A DNA stretch of 64,000 nt from an uncultured Alphaproteobacteria bacterium (lineage in GTDB: Bacteria; Pseudomonadota; Alphaproteobacteria; RF32; CAG-239). How positions within the stretch are numbered: position 1 is the first letter of the stretch; the number at the start of each line of letters is the position of its first letter. The stretch is from NCBI GenBank assembly GCA_944390355.1, contig CALXPT010000006.1, positions 5,826-69,825 on the forward strand, in the 5' to 3' direction. The translations under genes and the position numbers were made by a program. Under the pieces are notes generated by a model. It saw nothing but the letters and a program-made list of their open reading frames with translations. It ran no database searches and was not told the origin of the DNA. Shown here one piece after another: positions 6,099 to 49,250 of the stretch.

Positions 6099-7574
6099 AT
6101 GGAAACCAAAATAGACCCAGCCATTTTGCCGCAAAATCTTGAAGCAGAACAAGCCCTGCTCGGAGCCATATTGATAAACAACAAAGCTTTTGAAAAAGTT
6201 TCCGAATACCTAAAACCCTACCACTTTGCAGATTCGATTCATGCTAAAATATTCGAAGTCATATCAAAATTAATACAAAGAGGCCATGTCGCCGACGTCA
6301 TCACGCTCAAGAACTACTTTGAACAAGAAGGTTCGTTGAATGAAGTCGGTGGAGCAAAATACCTCTTAAAACTGGCCGACAGTGCTTCTCCGTTAACCAA
6401 CATCGAATACTACGGTCAGTTCATTTATGACAAATACCTAAGACGAGAGCTGATAGCCACCGGATATGACATTGTCAACGCCGCCATGACCGAAGACATA
6501 GATTCGGATGCCAATGAACAAATCGAGCAGGCAGAGAAAAAACTCTTTGAACTATCAAACCAAGGAGATATCAACGGCGGCTTTGTATCATTCGGAGAAG
6601 CCCTTGCCAGTTCACTATCGCTCATCGAGCAAGCCTACCAAAAAGAAGGCAAACTTTCCGGCCTTCCGACAGGCTTAGACGCTCTGGACGCCAAAACCGG
6701 CGGACTGAACAATTCCGACTTAATTATTTTAGCCGGCCGTCCTGCCATGGGAAAAACCGCCTTAGCAACAAATATTGCATTTAATGTGGCAGAATATATG
6801 TCCCGCGCCAAGGATTTGGATGAAAAATCAAGAGGCGTAGCCTTTTTCTCGCTCGAAATGTCGGCCGACCAGCTGGCCAGCCGTATATTATCAACGGTAA
6901 CCCAAACCTCAAGCCACAAAATGCGCACCGGAGAATTGGAAGAATCCGAATTTATCCGAGTTGCGGCCGGAGTCCGAGAATTAGAAAAAATTCCGTTATA
7001 TATAGACGATTCCCCCGGAGTAAACATCAACACCATCCGCACCCGCGCCCGTCGTCTAAAAAGGAACAAAGGTCTGGGCTTAATAGTCATAGACTATATC
7101 CAACTCATCAGCGGCAGCGGCACCAAAAAAACCGAGGGCAACCGCGTGCAGGAATTATCCGAAATCTCGCGAGGCCTAAAGATTTTAGCCAAAGAATTAA
7201 ATTTGCCGGTTATAGCTTTGTCGCAATTAAACCGCGGTGTTGAACAACGAGACGACAAACGCCCCGTCATGTCAGACTTAAGAGAATCAGGCTCCATCGA
7301 GCAAGATGCCGATATTGTCATGTTTGTCTTCCGCGAAAACTACTATATCAAGAACGAAGAACCCAAACAGCATGCAGGCGAAACACCGGAACATTTCCAA
7401 AACCGAATTGAAGAATGGGAAAACCGCTTGCGCAAAACCGAAAACATCGGTGAAGTCATCATCGGCAAGCAACGCCACGGCCCGACTGGTACGGTTCAAC
7501 TTTTCTGGAACGGCGAGTTTGCCCAGTTTGGCAATCTTGTAAGAGAAGAAAACCTTCCGGATCAAATAGGCTAA
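6099..7574 (+). CDS. dnaB: Replicative DNA helicase DnaB
   Basis: 491 aa. Walker A GRPAMGKT, 'FSLEMS', 'IIGKQRHGPTG', and a DnaB N-terminal domain 'LPQNLEAEQALLGAIL'. Confidence 0.95.
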   Translation: METKIDPAILPQNLEAEQALLGAILINNKAFEKVSEYLKPYHFADSIHAKIFEVISKLIQRGHVADVITLKNYFEQEGSLNEVGGAKYLLKLADSASPLTNIEYYGQFIYDKYLRRELIATGYDIVNAAMTEDIDSDANEQIEQAEKKLFELSNQGDINGGFVSFGEALASSLSLIEQAYQKEGKLSGLPTGLDALDAKTGGLNNSDLIILAGRPAMGKTALATNIAFNVAEYMSRAKDLDEKSRGVAFFSLEMSADQLASRILSTVTQTSSHKMRTGELEESEFIRVAAGVRELEKIPLYIDDSPGVNINTIRTRARRLKRNKGLGLIVIDYIQLISGSGTKKTEGNRVQELSEISRGLKILAKELNLPVIALSQLNRGVEQRDDKRPVMSDLRESGSIEQDADIVMFVFRENYYIKNEEPKQHAGETPEHFQNRIEEWENRLRKTENIGEVIIGKQRHGPTGTVQLFWNGEFAQFGNLVREENLPDQIG

Positions 7575-7669
7575 TGAAAACACTTAGCAAAGAAATATTT
7601 AATACCTTGCTTATCTTTGGTTTGATGTTTATCAAAACCTCGGCAATATTTGTTTCCTATGCAACGACA

Positions 7670-8095
7670 CTATTCAGCCGAGTCTTCAGGCGTTTTTTTG
7701 CGTTTTTCAAAAGAAAATGAGGCTTTAAGAGAAGTCTTTTCAAATTTCATTCCCGCATAATCATATTGAGACTTATCCGGAGTCGCTTTGGAATTTTGGC
7801 ACTGACGAGCCTGTTCATCATGATGACAATGTCCCCCACAACGGCATTCACCATGTCTTCCGCTTTCACAACAACAGTCATGAGCCTCATGAGAGGTACA
7901 ACAATCGCCTTGCCCGCATGAGCAACCGCAAGCGCAATTTTCCGTCTCATTAACGGCATCATCAGGCACATTCTGCCCCTTTTCCGTCAACACCGCCTTT
8001 TGCATTTTTCTAAGTTTTGCACGTTGCTGAGCCCCGCAAGAACAAGTACCTTGCACAGGGGCATGAATAATTAAATTTGCCAGCCATTTAAACAT
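7670..8095 (-). CDS. Cys/His-rich putative metal-binding protein (no recognised family)
   Basis: 141 aa with 19 Cys and 9 His, e.g. 'CACGCSCGQGDCCTSHEAHDCCCESGRHGECRCGGHCHH'. Strong RBS (AGGAGA, spacing 7) upstream of the ATG on the minus strand. Confidence 0.55.
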   Translation of the reverse strand: MFKWLANLIIHAPVQGTCSCGAQQRAKLRKMQKAVLTEKGQNVPDDAVNETENCACGCSCGQGDCCTSHEAHDCCCESGRHGECRCGGHCHHDEQARQCQNSKATPDKSQYDYAGMKFEKTSLKASFSFEKRKKTPEDSAE

Positions 8096-8176: not shown

Positions 8177-8563
8177 GTGAAAAAAAAGCTAACGGACTAT
8201 AGCTCGGAAGAGTGGGAAAATATATGCAACCATTGTGGCAAATGCTGTTTGCTGAAACTCCAAGATGAAGATACGGGCAATATCTACTACACGGATATCG
8301 TCTGCAAGTATTATGATATGGAAAACGAACGTTGCAGTATCTACGAAAAACGTTGCGAAGTAGTTCCCGAATGCCTAAAATTAACACCGGACAACATCGA
8401 TAAAATTGAATGGATGCCCAAAAGCTGCGCCTATCGACGATTATTTGAAAAGGATTCGGGCTCGCCTTCTTCGACAAGCAGCATCAAAGGCCGCTGTATT
8501 TCCGAACAAAACGTAAAAGAAGACGAACTCGAAGACCACATCATAGATTGGGAAGACCTGTAA
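8177..8563 (+). CDS. YcgN/UPF0260-family Cys-cluster protein, copy 1 (divergent; GTG start)
   Basis: 'EEWENICNHCGKCCLLKLQDEDTGNIYYTDIVCKYYD...PECLKLTP...WMPKSCAYRRL' aligns with E. coli YcgN, but lacks the CxC of the central cluster. Confidence 0.7.
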   Translation: MKKKLTDYSSEEWENICNHCGKCCLLKLQDEDTGNIYYTDIVCKYYDMENERCSIYEKRCEVVPECLKLTPDNIDKIEWMPKSCAYRRLFEKDSGSPSSTSSIKGRCISEQNVKEDELEDHIIDWEDL

Positions 8564-8567
8564 AACC

Positions 8568-9074
8568 ATGGATCTAAAAACAATAGAATTACAAACGCCC
8601 TATACCCCGCAAAGTCGTTTTAATGACCTGAAAGGGATAGAACCCGAGTTTTGGAAAAAGAAAAAACTCGAACAAATGAACAAAACCGAATGGGAGCTAT
8701 TGTGCGACGGCTGCGGCAAATGCTGTTTAAATAAGCTTGAAATCAAAGGCAAAATAAGATTCACAAACACGCATTGCCGTTTTTTAGATTGCCAAACATG
8801 TTTATGCAAAATCTACGAACACCGTTTTGAAAAAGTTCCCGATTGCCGCGATATAGATTTGCAAGCCATCCGAGAAAAGCCTCGCTGGTTACCCAAGACC
8901 TGCGCCTATTGGCTTTTAGACAACGGCTATGACCTGCCCGAGTGGCACCCGCTCATCACGGGCAACGCCGATTCGGTACACCAAGCAAAAATGTCGCTAA
9001 AAGGACGTAAAATTATCTCAGAAAGCGGAATTAAAGACTATGAAAATTACACTGTTAACTGGCAAGACTTATAA
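8568..9074 (+). CDS. YcgN/UPF0260-family Cys-cluster protein, copy 2 (canonical)
   Basis: 'EWELLCDGCGKCCLNKLE...FTNTHCRFLDCQTCLCKIYEHRFEKVPDCRDI...WLPKTCAYWLLDNGYDLPEWHPLITG' is near-collinear with E. coli YcgN. Confidence 0.8.
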   Translation: MDLKTIELQTPYTPQSRFNDLKGIEPEFWKKKKLEQMNKTEWELLCDGCGKCCLNKLEIKGKIRFTNTHCRFLDCQTCLCKIYEHRFEKVPDCRDIDLQAIREKPRWLPKTCAYWLLDNGYDLPEWHPLITGNADSVHQAKMSLKGRKIISESGIKDYENYTVNWQDL

Positions 9075-9829: not shown

Positions 9830-10555
9830 ATGTTAGACAATTCAAAAGCACAAGTAACCGCTCTGGTAGATGAAGGCTTAAAAGACTATATGCTGAAAGT
9901 CTACAACTTCATGGCCGGTGGCTTGGCCGTAACCGCATTGGCGGCCTATGTTCTCATGAGTTCGCCGACTTTCATGCGCATATTTTTTTCATTTAACGAG
10001 GCCGGCTATGCAACCGGTATGTCCGCATTCGGCTGGATAATATTATTTGCGCCGTTAGTAATGGTATTTGCATTTAGCTGGGTTATCGCACGCGGCACAT
10101 CGCAACAAGTACAAATTTTATTCTGGAGCTATGCAGCGGTAATGGGCATATCATTAACACCAACCTTAATGATATACACCGGAGCGTCGGTCGCCCGCGT
10201 ATTTTTAATCACGGCCGCAATGTTTGGCGGCATGAGTTTGTATGGTTATACCACCAAAAAAGACTTAAGTGGTATGGGCTCATTTTTAATCATGGGTGTA
10301 TGGGGTATTGTAATCGCCTCAATCGTCAATTTGTTCATGCAAAGCCCTGGGTTATCTTATGCTATTTCGATTATAGCCGTTATAGCCTTTACGGGATTAA
10401 CTGCGTATGACACACAAAAGATTCGTCAAATCTACTTTGCCGGAGACGATAAAGAAACCTACACCAAGAAAGCCATTTTAGGAGCCTTGGAATTATATCT
10501 GGACTTTATCAATATGTTTATAGCACTTTTGCGTTTAATCGGCGACCGCCGTTAA
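9830..10555 (+). CDS. Bax-inhibitor-1/YccA family membrane protein
   Basis: 241 aa, 7 TM segments, BI-1-like N-terminus 'LKDYMLKVYNFMAGGLAVTA'. SD aggaga (spacing 7). Confidence 0.85.
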   Translation: MLDNSKAQVTALVDEGLKDYMLKVYNFMAGGLAVTALAAYVLMSSPTFMRIFFSFNEAGYATGMSAFGWIILFAPLVMVFAFSWVIARGTSQQVQILFWSYAAVMGISLTPTLMIYTGASVARVFLITAAMFGGMSLYGYTTKKDLSGMGSFLIMGVWGIVIASIVNLFMQSPGLSYAISIIAVIAFTGLTAYDTQKIRQIYFAGDDKETYTKKAILGALELYLDFINMFIALLRLIGDRR

Positions 10556-10573
10556 TTTCCAAATGCACGAAAC

Positions 10574-10606
10574 AAAACCGCAAGTTCAAAACTTGCGGTT
10601 TTTTAT
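10574..10606 (+). terminator. Rho-independent terminator
   Basis: Perfect 13-bp stem aaaaccgcaagtt / aacttgcggtttt followed by a T-run. Confidence 0.8.
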
Positions 10607-10607
10607 A

Positions 10608-10636
10608 TTGACAACAAAACAAAAAATAGTTATAAA
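10608..10636 (+). promoter_or_regulatory. Consensus sigma-70 promoter of the rpmH-rnpA-yidD-yidC operon
   Basis: TTGACA - 17 nt - TATAAA. It is followed by a ~90-nt leader containing two copies of aggcacatagcct. Confidence 0.6.
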
Positions 10637-10728
10637 GAGGCTGATTCCGAGGCTCAGGCACATAGCCTGAACTTAATTAATAATAATAACCAGAGGCACA
10701 TAGCCTCACATTTAACCGGAGAAATGAA

Positions 10729-10863
10729 ATGAAACGTACTTATCAACCAAGTAAATTGGTAAGAGCACGCCGCCACGGTTTCCGTGCCCGCATGGCCACC
10801 AAGAACGGCCGCAAAGTTTTGGCCGCTCGTCGTGCAAGAGGACGTGCAAAAATTTCTGCATAG
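10729..10863 (+). CDS. rpmH: 50S ribosomal protein L34 (absent from the ORF track because it is below the size cut-off)
   Basis: Translation [44 protein letters not shown] is a textbook L34. Confidence 0.9.
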
Positions 10864-10876
10864 GCCAACTAAGCAT

Positions 10877-11227
10877 ATGGAAATTTTAACACTAAAAAAG
10901 CGTAAAGATTTTCTGAGAGTCGCCGGCAAAGGGGAAAGAGTAATAACCTCCACCCTCGTATTGCAGGCGGCTCAAACTTTATCAGCCCCGACAGATGCAT
11001 CATATGTGGGCTACACCACCACCAAAAAAATCGGCAAAGCCCATATCCGCAACCGCGCCCGTCGTCGTATGCGCGCCGCAGTTCGTCTGCTGTTTCCGTC
11101 TCTTGCACAGCCGCAAATGAGTTATGTCCTAATCGGCCGCTACAACACAGCAGATTGCGCTTTTTCCAAACTCTGCAAAGACCTCACCTATGCCCTCAAA
11201 AAAATATCGGCACAGTCCACGGAATAA
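10877..11227 (+). CDS. rnpA: RNase P protein component
   Basis: Directly follows rpmH. '[17 protein letters not shown]...[23 protein letters not shown]' is the RnpA signature. Start 'MEIL' at 10877. Confidence 0.85.
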
Positions 11228-11238
11228 AGCCTTTTAAC

Positions 11239-11493
11239 ATGAAACAGCAAATACATCAACTTCTGAAAAAATTTTTCATTCTGCCGATAAGGTTTTATCA
11301 ACTATTCATATCGCCGTTTTTCCCGCAAGTTTGCCGCTATCATCCCACCTGCTCCCAATACATGATAGAGGCAATTCAAACCCATGGTATTATAAAGGGG
11401 CTATGGCTCGGCACCAAACGCATTTTGCGCTGTCATCCATGGGGAGGTTCGGGAGAAGACCCCGTACCGCCCAAACAGAAAAACCAGCATTAA
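11239..11493 (+). CDS. yidD: Membrane protein insertion efficiency factor YidD
   Basis: '[32 protein letters not shown]' is the YidD motif. Conserved position between rnpA and yidC. Confidence 0.85.
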
Positions 11494-47155: not shown

Positions 47156-48508
47156 CTAAAAAGCTAGGACCGGGCGAACGTACTCGCTATAGTCGTTCTT
47201 ATCGTAGCCGTACACGTAATCGCCTCTGAAACTCAAATTCCACGCGAGGTTGCCTGAATGCTCGGAAGAAGACCAATACCAATCTGGCTCCAATTTTGTT
47301 CCGCCGATTTTTCCTAACGCTATATTCAATACATCCTTATTACCACGTATAGCGTTTAATTCACCAAAAGCCGGCAAATACCAATCTCCGGCTATTGTTC
47401 CTTCTGTTTTATAGCTGTTCACATACTCAAATGCAGGACAACTCTTCCCATTCGCCTTACAATACTCCAACACTACCCTCGTATTGTTTTTACCTTGCCA
47501 ATCCGCTGTAACCGCTGATCGCGATGTTATATTACTCAACCCCGGAACATCAAAATAATCTGGAAATGACCAATATTGTCGAGATTCCTCCAACGCTATC
47601 GCTAAACGATTCTCTTCATCAAACACCACACCGATTGGTGTTTTATCAGAAATAACGTCAGGTGAGCAACTTCTGTCCGAATATAATATATCTCCGATTT
47701 TGCAATCGCAGTAATCGGCGGTTATGATGTATAAATTTGAGCATTCTTCATAAGTGCAGACCATGCACGGCGGACATTCGCTCTCTGTGCCGAGGTTCGG
47801 GCATGGTTCACATTCCGAACACAGGGTTGTATTGCCGCTTTGACAAGTGCTAGCGCCGTCCTCGCAGCCCATTTCCCCGCAATCCAAATATCCGGTGCAG
47901 TCTTTCTCTTTGATTTTGTATAAGTCGCCATCACAAGATTTGCATGGTTCGCCGTCAGTTTCATAACCAGAGGGAATTTCATCTAAGCTATATTGATATT
48001 CTGCCGAACATGACGGATTACAGCAGTCTTCATACAAATCATTGCCGCAAACCTCTCCGACACCTTTTAATGGCGGTTCGCAGGTCTTGTAATCACTCGG
48101 GCAGTCCGGAATACATTCGGCAAAATATTTGTTATTCAGCGGACAATATTTATTAGGCTTATAACCGCTCGGACATGAGGTTTTGGTAAAACCCATTTCA
48201 ATACAACTGTTATCACCGCCACCGCCCCCAGGGGGAACAACTTCCGGCGTACCGCCTTCCAAATCCGTACCGACAAAGTCCGCCCCGCCGCAATCTTCCG
48301 TATCAGTTATCCAGCACACCTGTGCAACTTTAATCTCTTGCCGCTCACTAAAACTCGGCGGAGACAAGTAAACTTCAGAAAAGAGGTGTGTGTGAAGTGT
48401 GTGAACAAATGTAATTTTTTCTGAAGGAAGGGAAATATCGGCTCTCACATCCGGCGCAAAAATCGCAACCGAAGATAATAGCCCAAACAACAAATAAACC
48501 TTGTTCAT
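47156..48508 (-). CDS. Secreted Cys-rich protein with an EGF/furin-like Cys-rich central region and a C-terminal DUF1566 (Lcl C-terminal-like) domain
   Basis: Signal peptide 'MNKVYLLFGLLSSVAIFAPDVRA' (ATG 48508, SD aagga). About 50 Cys in 'CPSGYKPNKYCP...CEPCPNLGTESECPPCMVC'. The C-terminus 'DWYLPAFGELNAI...DWYWSSSEHSGNLAWNLSFRGDYVYGYDKNDYSEYVRPV' matches the DUF1566 consensus. Confidence 0.7.
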   Translation of the reverse strand: MNKVYLLFGLLSSVAIFAPDVRADISLPSEKITFVHTLHTHLFSEVYLSPPSFSERQEIKVAQVCWITDTEDCGGADFVGTDLEGGTPEVVPPGGGGGDNSCIEMGFTKTSCPSGYKPNKYCPLNNKYFAECIPDCPSDYKTCEPPLKGVGEVCGNDLYEDCCNPSCSAEYQYSLDEIPSGYETDGEPCKSCDGDLYKIKEKDCTGYLDCGEMGCEDGASTCQSGNTTLCSECEPCPNLGTESECPPCMVCTYEECSNLYIITADYCDCKIGDILYSDRSCSPDVISDKTPIGVVFDEENRLAIALEESRQYWSFPDYFDVPGLSNITSRSAVTADWQGKNNTRVVLEYCKANGKSCPAFEYVNSYKTEGTIAGDWYLPAFGELNAIRGNKDVLNIALGKIGGTKLEPDWYWSSSEHSGNLAWNLSFRGDYVYGYDKNDYSEYVRPVLAF

Positions 48509-48668
48509 GATAAAAGTCCTTTCGATATTACTTATCTCCACGACTCGTATTATACCACAAGAAAAAAATCCTTTCAATAGAAATTTTCGAGGTTTTCCGC
48601 GGGTTTGCACGAAGTGTTTTGCAAAAAAAACTCCCTTTGGGAATAACATCACCAAAGGGAGTCTGCAC

Positions 48669-49250
48669 TTAAAACTTTAACCGAAACATCGGCCAAACAC
48701 GACATTTCCTATCCAACGGAACAAATCCAAAACCAAAATTATAACCGACACCTGCCAACCAAACCGGATAGAGACATTGTCCTGAAGCCGTCCAATACAT
48801 CGCACCGCAATCCATAGCCGGAGTATCGATTCTCTTCAAACTATCAGAAATAACATCCAAATGCCCGAGCGATAACATAAACTCACGCTTGCTTGGCAAA
48901 AAAACTTCGTTGACACAACAAACAGTAGACTGAAAATCCAAACAAAACCGAACCGCCTCAGCCCGTTTGCCTTGTTCCTTCGCTTGTTCGGCAATAAGCT
49001 TGGTCGCACGATACCCATCCAACTTCTCCCAATCATCACAAAAATTTATTCCATCAGATGAAAAGGGAAGCTCAACTTGCCTCAAAGCCCAACAAAAACA
49101 CTCATGTTTCCGCTTAAAGGCTACCACGCCGCAAATTTCGGCATCTCGTTTAACCGGTTTTTGGGAAATAAAACCATCGGAATAACAATACATCCCCGGA
49201 AAAATCCATTTTTTCCAAAAGACAAACTTAGCAAAAAAATTTTTATTCAT
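48669..49250 (-). CDS. DUF1566-like protein (paralog; no obvious signal peptide)
   Basis: 'EVFLPSKREFMLS' (an LP..EL block) and 'AMYWTASGQ..YPVWLAGVGYNFGFGFVPLDRKCRVWPM' parallel the DUF1566 C-terminal block of the neighbouring gene. Confidence 0.5.
   Translation of the reverse strand: MNKNFFAKFVFWKKWIFPGMYCYSDGFISQKPVKRDAEICGVVAFKRKHECFCWALRQVELPFSSDGINFCDDWEKLDGYRATKLIAEQAKEQGKRAEAVRFCLDFQSTVCCVNEVFLPSKREFMLSLGHLDVISDSLKRIDTPAMDCGAMYWTASGQCLYPVWLAGVGYNFGFGFVPLDRKCRVWPMFRLKF

Follow-up and report, generated by a model that had tools for sequence, protein, structure and literature searches.

A 64,000-nt stretch of DNA from an uncultured Alphaproteobacteria bacterium (contig CALXPT010000006.1; the whole stretch is hereafter the window, and coordinates refer to it unless a related locus is named) contains a complete coding sequence (CDS) at 47156..48508 on the minus strand. 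The open reading frame (ORF) listing and its translation give a product of 450 aa plus stop, in which a Cys-rich module is fused to a DUF1566/C-type-lectin-fold domain. Diversity-generating retroelements (DGRs) are reverse-transcriptase systems that rewrite a lectin-like binding site. The window gene very probably belongs to such a system, as the gene of a variable (target) protein that is secreted, disulfide-rich and ligand-binding, with a DGR variable repeat (VR) in its C-type-lectin head and with its template and reverse transcriptase located elsewhere or lost. A first-pass annotation, made from the sequence alone, had described the product as a surface adhesin, possibly acquired horizontally, and had missed its defining feature, namely that the C-terminus is a DGR variable repeat. 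The adhesin idea itself is reasonable; the protein would be displayed or secreted and would bind a variable ligand. Below, related loci and contigs carry L-numbers and related proteins P-numbers.

The VR comprises 119 nt (47158..47276, minus), forms the last 39 codons of the gene and encodes WSSSEHSGNLAWNLSFRGDYVYGYDKNDYSEYVRPVLAF. It was compared with TR2, one of two template repeats (TRs) at the related locus L001 (8770-8888 of that locus), to which it aligns without gaps over 119 nt at 81.5% identity. Mismatches occur at 19 of the 42 template adenines and at 3 of the 77 other bases (Fisher p=6.6e-8), and the adenine-mutagenised part of the VR extends over approximately 47184-47260. The TR2 template comes from the metagenome-assembled genome (MAG) of a related species rather than from the window genome, and the housekeeping DNA of the two is ~79% identical; because the template is from another species, the three non-adenine differences are unsurprising. 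TR2, which has many AAY codons, encodes WSSSENSNNNAWNLRFSDGNVNNNNKNNNNNYVRPVLAY; it is located in the non-coding stretch that separates the bAvd and reverse transcriptase genes. A template of this type has 22 recodable codons, corresponding to ~10^22.5 sequences. Across the family, the C-terminal segments of the 39-aa class are unique in 34 of 39 members, and sequence entropy peaks at the template Asn codons, with WSSSE, AW, K and YVRPV remaining constant.

The DGR cassette to which this VR was related was recovered by a genome-collection search, in which L001 to L005 were found as five paralogous loci of one MAG, named 'uncultured Alphaproteobacteria bacterium'. L001 has separate, adjacent Cys-rich and DUF1566 genes, followed by a 125-aa four-helix protein, ~600 nt of non-coding DNA and a reverse transcriptase of 439 aa that bears the motifs IGNLTSQ, a DGR hallmark, and YVDD. 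Homologues of this enzyme carry RVT_1 adjoining PF22296 bAvd. The non-coding DNA includes two tandem 251-nt units (8344-8960), each with one template repeat (TR1 and TR2). A duplicated template unit is also present in L010/L011, L014 and L016; the copies in this clade are 89-93% identical, are ~235-260 nt long and lie between bAvd and the reverse transcriptase. The VR next to the L001 cassette differs from TR1 by 14 adenine and 0 non-adenine mismatches. On other contigs, the VR of L002 differs from TR2 by 15 adenine and 0 non-adenine mismatches, that of L003 from TR2 by 15 and 1, and that of L004 from TR1 by 18 and 0, while the VR of L010 differs from its own TRb by 17 and 0. TR1 and TR2 of the L001 MAG thus each pair with different targets, and L002 to L005, being on contigs other than that of L001, are non-adjacent targets. 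These related loci are bona fide DGRs with non-adjacent targets.

The cis elements of the window VR follow the same pattern. The definition of the initiation of mutagenic homing (IMH) element was taken from the literature (PMC5758913). Comparison of all VR and TR ends identified an IMH-like, invariant VR 3' end with a GC-rich start, TACGTTCGCCCGGTCCTAGCTT, at 47161..47182 (minus). All VRs share the invariant end TACGTTCGCCCRGTCCTAGCTT and continue with TTTAGGTTC, whereas the TRs instead continue with ATTCRT or TTTTGTAAAA (TTTTGT), so that VR and TR sequences part directly after the IMH-like end, at the stop codon. These VR-specific and TR-specific continuations correspond to the distinction between IMH and IMH*. 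The window VR and the DGR-adjacent VR of L010 have identical IMH-like ends. Further downstream, 25 nt past the stop codon, there is a GC-rich inverted repeat of 9 bp (AACGCCCCG-TGTTCTT-CGGGGCGTT; 47107..47131, minus) with a DNA folding energy of -15.8 kcal/mol (z=-4.3), which none of 200 shuffled sequences equalled. The VRs of L001, L002, L003, L004, L005, L008 and L010 are likewise followed by an equivalent hairpin within ~25-35 nt, whereas no template is. Efficient retrohoming by the Bordetella and Legionella DGRs depends on an inverted repeat of this kind (PMC5758913), and the window repeat is a candidate DGR target-recognition hairpin and/or bidirectional terminator. The two-domain paralogue at L005 has two VR-like segments, one internal (6972-7091) and one C-terminal (7557-7675). 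Both show an excess of mismatches at adenine positions plus several non-adenine ones, and in the internal segment the IMH-like sequence stops after GTTCGCCCAGT and is followed by coding sequence.

The domain that bears the VR is a DUF1566/Lcl_C-like C-type-lectin-fold domain at aa 266-450 (47159..47713, minus), with the DUF1566 motifs DWYLPAFGEL, YWSSSE, AW and YVRPV. The first-pass annotation had recognised this C-terminal region from its motifs and put it at ~140 aa; the assignment stands, with a Pfam Lcl_C (PF07603) match at aa 353-447 (47168-47452; E=4.4e-6, 27.4 bits), and the length is corrected to ~185 aa. Two-domain relatives reach 66.8 and 72.4 bits for Lcl_C. The exact window protein is present in a public collection as P0001, and its precomputed annotation there includes PF07603.18. 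In the structure model the VR is displayed on a C-type-lectin fold, a fold type that DGRs employ, and the head is predicted to adopt the fold of the Lcl C-terminal domain (CTD), which has been described as C-type-lectin-like (PMC11162425). Structure comparison gave values of 14.8 for a Bacteroides fimbrial tip protein (4eps_A), 11.2 for the Legionella Lcl CTD (8q4e_A) and, for two DGR variable proteins, 6.0 (TvpA, 2y3c) and 4.5 (Mtd, 1yu0). The resemblance to 4eps is confined to the C-terminal head. One group of Bacteroides DGR variable proteins is defined by 4EPS-like folds (bioRxiv 10.1101/2024.11.15.621889).

The following steps are established for DGRs, and we infer that they would apply to the window gene. 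Transcription of a non-coding template repeat with many AAY (Asn) codons would be followed by its copying to cDNA by the DGR reverse transcriptase together with Avd, with misincorporation opposite template adenines. The cDNA would then replace the VR, with the GC-rich IMH at the VR 3' end as guide and the downstream hairpin as an aid. Up to 22 codons of the binding surface could be recoded in this way, with the scaffold residues fixed. The template and reverse transcriptase that wrote the window VR would be located elsewhere in the genome (targeting in trans, from a remote position) or would have been lost.

Several observations weigh against identification of the window gene as a DGR target. 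The best template belongs to a different species and leaves three non-adenine mismatches, and Lcl_C is matched below its gathering score (34.9). Situated between convergent genes, the downstream hairpin may be a plain terminator. Searches of the 64-kb window with the L001 reverse transcriptase (tblastn) and with the VR (sensitive blastn) detected no reverse transcriptase, Avd or template. As reverse transcriptase and template are missing over 47 kb to one side of the gene and 16 kb to the other, the gene is regarded as a remote or orphaned target. The cognate template was not found among seven reverse-transcriptase loci (L010-L016, L025, L026), none of which had fewer non-adenine mismatches than TR2 of L001. 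Finally, L006 and L007 carry a VR 100% identical to that of the window, as does L017, a strain that is 0.57% divergent over 17 kb and whose 19 differences in the gene all lie outside the VR. Because the window and these three contigs share a single VR sequence, there is no evidence of ongoing diversification at the locus.

The target is therefore currently static, and may be either remote and quiescent or a fossil. The fossil explanation is a sub-case of the DGR-target reading, from which it differs in present activity alone: the VR would have been written by a past DGR whose reverse transcriptase and template have since been lost or are no longer used here, leaving a binding protein of fixed sequence. 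We regard this as quite possible, without favouring it. It accords with a VR that is identical in four contigs from at least three samples, including the divergent strain, with the three non-adenine differences, with the distances over which reverse transcriptase and template are missing, and with the arrangement in L006, where a GatCAB-PfkB-Zip context leads straight to the fused gene without Avd, template or reverse transcriptase. However, the IMH-like end matches that of a VR adjacent to a DGR, the hairpin and the ORF are intact and the promoter is strong. The three differences are expected when the template belongs to another species, rare or regulated activity is common among DGRs (bioRxiv 10.1101/2024.11.15.621889), and L006 is possibly an assembly chimera. 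In addition, the reverse transcriptase of L025 is preceded by a template end with the CCCGG variant of the window VR, although this template is incomplete. L025 is a Logan contig that starts inside the template end (1-110; CAATTACGTTCGCCCGGTCCTAGCTTATTTGTG); its reverse transcriptase comes next and shares 70% identity with the L001 enzyme. The contig may represent the cognate element of the window species. In a separate search, seven metagenome contigs matched the predicted template pattern; only the pattern itself matched, and they were rejected as chance matches.

Variation at the locus at present takes a different form. Over 21,356 nt, the window and L007 share 99.95% identity, and all 11 of their differences fall in codons 10-94 of the gene (48226-48479), including one 3-nt indel. 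This cluster suggests gene conversion from a paralogous Cys-rich gene. Since the differences cluster in the 5' half, current variation comes from recombination-like patches and not from the VR. L006 and L007, two contigs from sister samples (gene at 10001-11356 in both), are 100% identical from 80 nt before the ATG to 11.4 kb downstream. Their upstream parts are unrelated, being GatCAB-PfkB-Zip in L006 and Hsp33-RecX-174 aa in L007. The GatCAB-Zip context is also the setting of the complete DGR cassette in L001. This upstream switch reflects either a genuine rearrangement between paralogous loci or chimeric assembly at the 5' region that they share.

The fused gene also has a traceable origin. 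Comparison of the gene with L008, L001 and L004 by blastn places the fusion junction (YIITADYCDCKIGDILYSD) at 47706..47719 (minus). Nucleotides 1-790 of the gene match the Cys-rich gene of a two-gene arrangement (88.5% to L008, from the sample of L007), and nucleotides 803-1353 match the separate downstream DUF1566 gene from approximately codon 104. Relative to the two-gene arrangement, ~470 nt are absent, comprising the stop codon, the spacer, a second signal peptide, the CIQTP motif and a coiled coil. The window gene thus arose by an in-frame deletion of ~470 nt that fused a Cys-rich gene to the following DUF1566 gene. Independent fusions are found elsewhere in the family (P0049, P0019 and P0096) and the Cys-rich/DUF1566 gene pair recurs at several loci, both of which suggest a joint function of the Cys-rich protein and the variable head.

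The family to which these genes belong is large. A protein search yielded 960 relatives, all of them unnamed proteins of metagenomes or MAGs, and a profile search of 1.84 billion cluster representatives returned 1,913 members at E<=0.001, some of them up to 1,843 aa long with many repeated stretches. The profile had 537 positions and mixed the Cys-rich and DUF1566 parts, so the counts describe the combined family only. Pfam scans of the long multi-module relatives found Lcl_C only, plus two low-scoring and probably spurious matches, and no anchor or secretion domain. Three types were distinguished: (a) Cys-rich-only proteins of ~280-320 aa with a leader as in the window protein, (b) proteins with another signal peptide, a short 'ACIQTPTCSSLGYTS...C' motif, a coiled coil and one or two DUF1566 domains, and (c) fusions resembling the window protein, some with additional Cys-rich units.

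A broader reading, which we put forward tentatively and consider doubtful as a whole, is that the lineage runs a multi-locus surface-repertoire system. One DGR with two templates would diversify dispersed stalk/head gene pairs in trans, recombination, gene conversion and fusion would add a combinatorial layer, and the Cys-rich module would be a new domain family working with the heads. The window gene would then be one such fusion, and the difference between L006 and L007 as well as the clustered differences would be possible traces of the process.

The Cys-rich module occupies aa 100-265 (47714..48211, minus) and contains ~24 conserved Cys in beta-hairpin units. The whole protein has 30 Cys, 28 of which lie within aa 65-281, fewer than the approximately 50 first reported. 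Modelled separately (aa 95-270), the module reached a predicted local distance difference test (pLDDT) score of 83.4 and consisted of short beta-hairpins. It matches no Pfam family, and the Cys-rich-only homologue P0015 likewise has zero Pfam matches. A PDB sequence search with the protein returned a single chance RING-finger match (E=1.4). Internal repeats were not significant (score 61 vs 51.8 +/- 8.9 for shuffles), and the first Cys-rich unit aligned with the ACIQTPTCSSLGYTS N-terminus of DUF1566-only paralogues ~3 standard deviations above shuffles, with one shuffle scoring higher. The module is predicted to be a stalk-like structure of ~165 aa with an undescribed fold.

The first-pass annotation had compared this region to eukaryote-like EGF, furin or TNFR repeats and had suggested an adhesin, possibly acquired horizontally, with an Lcl-type DUF1566 domain. 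Taken as a model without hypermutation, we consider this very improbable. The DUF1566-like domain is real, and the sole Foldseek matches of the Cys-rich module in the PDB are EGF, TNFR and furin-like proteins (uromodulin, DR6, CD97, p75 and R-spondin). All of these are insignificant (best E=0.15, TM<=0.18), so the resemblance is generic to elongated disulfide-rich modules and does not indicate homology. None of the EGF, furin-like and TNFR hidden Markov models in a Pfam scan matches the protein at E<=1, and the module is found only with Lcl_C, in a large bacterial family. Furthermore, the target lies among housekeeping genes (TruA, RecX and Hsp33) in DNA of native composition. The family is a lineage-wide paralogous expansion in such a neighbourhood and not an isolated horizontal acquisition. 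The eukaryote-like and horizontal-transfer parts of the proposal are already contradicted, and the adenine-specific pattern would be left unexplained. The related statement that DUF1566 is unusual in Alphaproteobacteria is at odds with the number of relatives and cluster representatives in this modular family and with the presence of five loci in one alphaproteobacterial MAG. That the VR/TR similarity is ordinary paralogy of DUF1566 C-termini, made hypervariable by diversifying selection and gene conversion, is scarcely credible: gene-conversion-like patches do occur (the codon 10-94 cluster and the clustered differences of L017) and cassettes are shuffled and fused throughout the family, but neither selection nor gene conversion produces a base-specific pattern such as the adenine bias of the window VR or the near-total lack of non-adenine mismatches (zero, with one in L003) across five sister TR-VR pairs, and the templates are non-coding AAY-codon copies between bAvd and a DGR-type reverse transcriptase.

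Among known systems, DUF1566 is the commonest Pfam domain of DGR variable proteins in human microbiome data (PMC4159848). It defines the 'category d/CLec2' DGR targets, of which Legionella LdtA is an example, and remote targets have been documented (PMC5758913). The comparison class is the DUF1566/Fib_succ_major 'category d' with CLec2 VRs, whose prototype is LdtA of Legionella pneumophila (Wu et al. 2018, PMC5758913). Like this class, the window protein has a C-terminal VR in a DUF1566-type C-type-lectin fold, and shares the AAY-rich template, adenine-specific mismatches, a GC-rich IMH-like end and a downstream inverted repeat. It also has an export signal (putative in the window protein), and in both cases targets may be non-adjacent to the reverse transcriptase. 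Unlike LdtA, which is a lipoprotein (PMC5758913), the window protein has no lipobox. Its N-terminal partner is an undescribed Cys-rich module, its reverse transcriptase and template lie outside the window, and the related cassettes have two tandem templates for different targets, all of which set it apart from the LdtA class.

Other likenesses are partial. The Bacteroides Type V pilus tip proteins (PDB 4EPS, BACOVA_04982/BovFim1C) are comparable in that 4EPS-like folds classify one Bacteroides DGR variable-protein group. In contrast to them, the window protein has no lipoprotein signal and no pilin N-terminal domains, scores 12.1 bits against NCBIfam NF052322 FimD (cut-off 170), and comes from an alphaproteobacterium and not from Bacteroidota. 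Legionella Lcl (PDB 8Q4E; PMC11162425) shares the design of stalk plus head, and the paralogues P0002 and P0069, with a coiled-coil stalk before the DUF1566 head, recall the 'lollipop' of its trimer. However, the window protein has a Cys-rich stalk without collagen GXY repeats and scores 13.1 bits against NCBIfam NF046116 adhesin_Lcl (cut-off 500), and the Lcl-CTD is not described as a DGR target in PMC11162425. The DGR of Treponema denticola TvpA (PDB 2Y3C) resembles the present system in that one DGR serves several remote targets, seven being reported for Treponema (PMC5758913). TvpA is of the FGE-sulfatase type, whereas the window protein is of the DUF1566 type; the TvpA DGR has a single template repeat, unlike the related cassettes, and TvpA has no Cys-rich partner.

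The consequence for annotation is that an 'odd adhesin' is relabelled as a target of programmed hypermutation, which changes how the gene is annotated and studied. Large metagenome surveys are explicitly unable to detect remote targets (Roux et al. 2021, PMC8144416), so genes of this kind go unrecognised. The natural stalk-head fusion offers an experimental handle and suggests that Cys-rich and DUF1566 variable proteins belong together. Both DUF1566-class DGR targets and remote targeting had been described before, and the locus shows no sign of current activity. The modestly new elements are the undescribed Cys-rich partner module, the two-template cassettes with dispersed targets and the natural stalk-head fusion.

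The 5' end of the gene is well defined. Its true start is the ATG at 48508: homologues start with MNKV, the same start was chosen by gene callers in L006, L007 and L017, and the promoter and ribosome-binding site agree, in keeping with the ORF (ending at 47156) as first annotated. A longer ORF from a TTG at 48655 was rejected, that codon being inside the terminator of the upstream gene. A promoter scan identified a sigma-70-type promoter at 48549..48577 (minus; TTGAAA-17 nt-(TG)TATAAT, 11/12 matches, extended -10), and the ribosome-binding site AAGGA lies at 48517-48521 (minus), 8 nt ahead of the ATG. The GC content of the gene region is 44-45%, against a range of 33-47% in the window.

Read from the sequence, aa 1-23 (MNKVYLLFGLLSSVAIFAPDVRA, followed by D; 48440..48508, minus) form a putative Sec-type signal peptide. 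This N-terminus consists of MNK, VYLLFGLLSSVAIFA and PDVRA ahead of D, and A23 is invariant across 53 homologues, in agreement with the clean signal peptide noted earlier. There is no lipobox, and no Cys within or just after the signal peptide. A conserved leader follows at aa 24-99 (48212..48439, minus), with HTLHTHL, KVAQVCWITDTEDCGGADFVG and a Pro/Gly linker to PPGGGGGD. Invariant columns in this region are H39, T40, Q63, V64, C65, D69, T70, C73, G75, F78 and V79. The structure model predicts disorder over residues 1-95 (pLDDT <50). The Gly run PPGGGGGD, also reported previously, is at aa 92-99; it is a G5 run only, with no collagen GXY repeats.

Some neighbouring genes deserve mention. Directly upstream of the target lies an ORF of 193 aa (48669-49250, minus), called as 174 aa in L007 and without a family match. 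It aligns weakly with the DUF1566 core (FLPSKREF/WYLPAFGEL and MYWTASG/WYWSSSE; hhalign probability 17%, E=1.4e-3) and could represent a degenerate lectin-fold relative that lacks a VR. A 64-aa ORF (46902-47096, plus) runs convergent with the target gene and is extremely Cys-rich, with ECTCGKECTCGKECHC-type repeats and a metallothionein-like look. Gene calls in L006 and L007 include it, it has no significant Pfam or NCBIfam match, and its DNA has 18-nt tandem repeats. Strain L017 varies in this region and has no gene call there. Judged by synteny with L006 and L007, the window also encodes an 814-aa type IV secretion system (T4SS) coupling-protein-like product (T4SS-DNA_transf/TraG; 38910-41354, minus) and a 443-aa pentapeptide-repeat protein (41436-42797, minus), whose genes lie a few kb from the target gene with no evident link to it.

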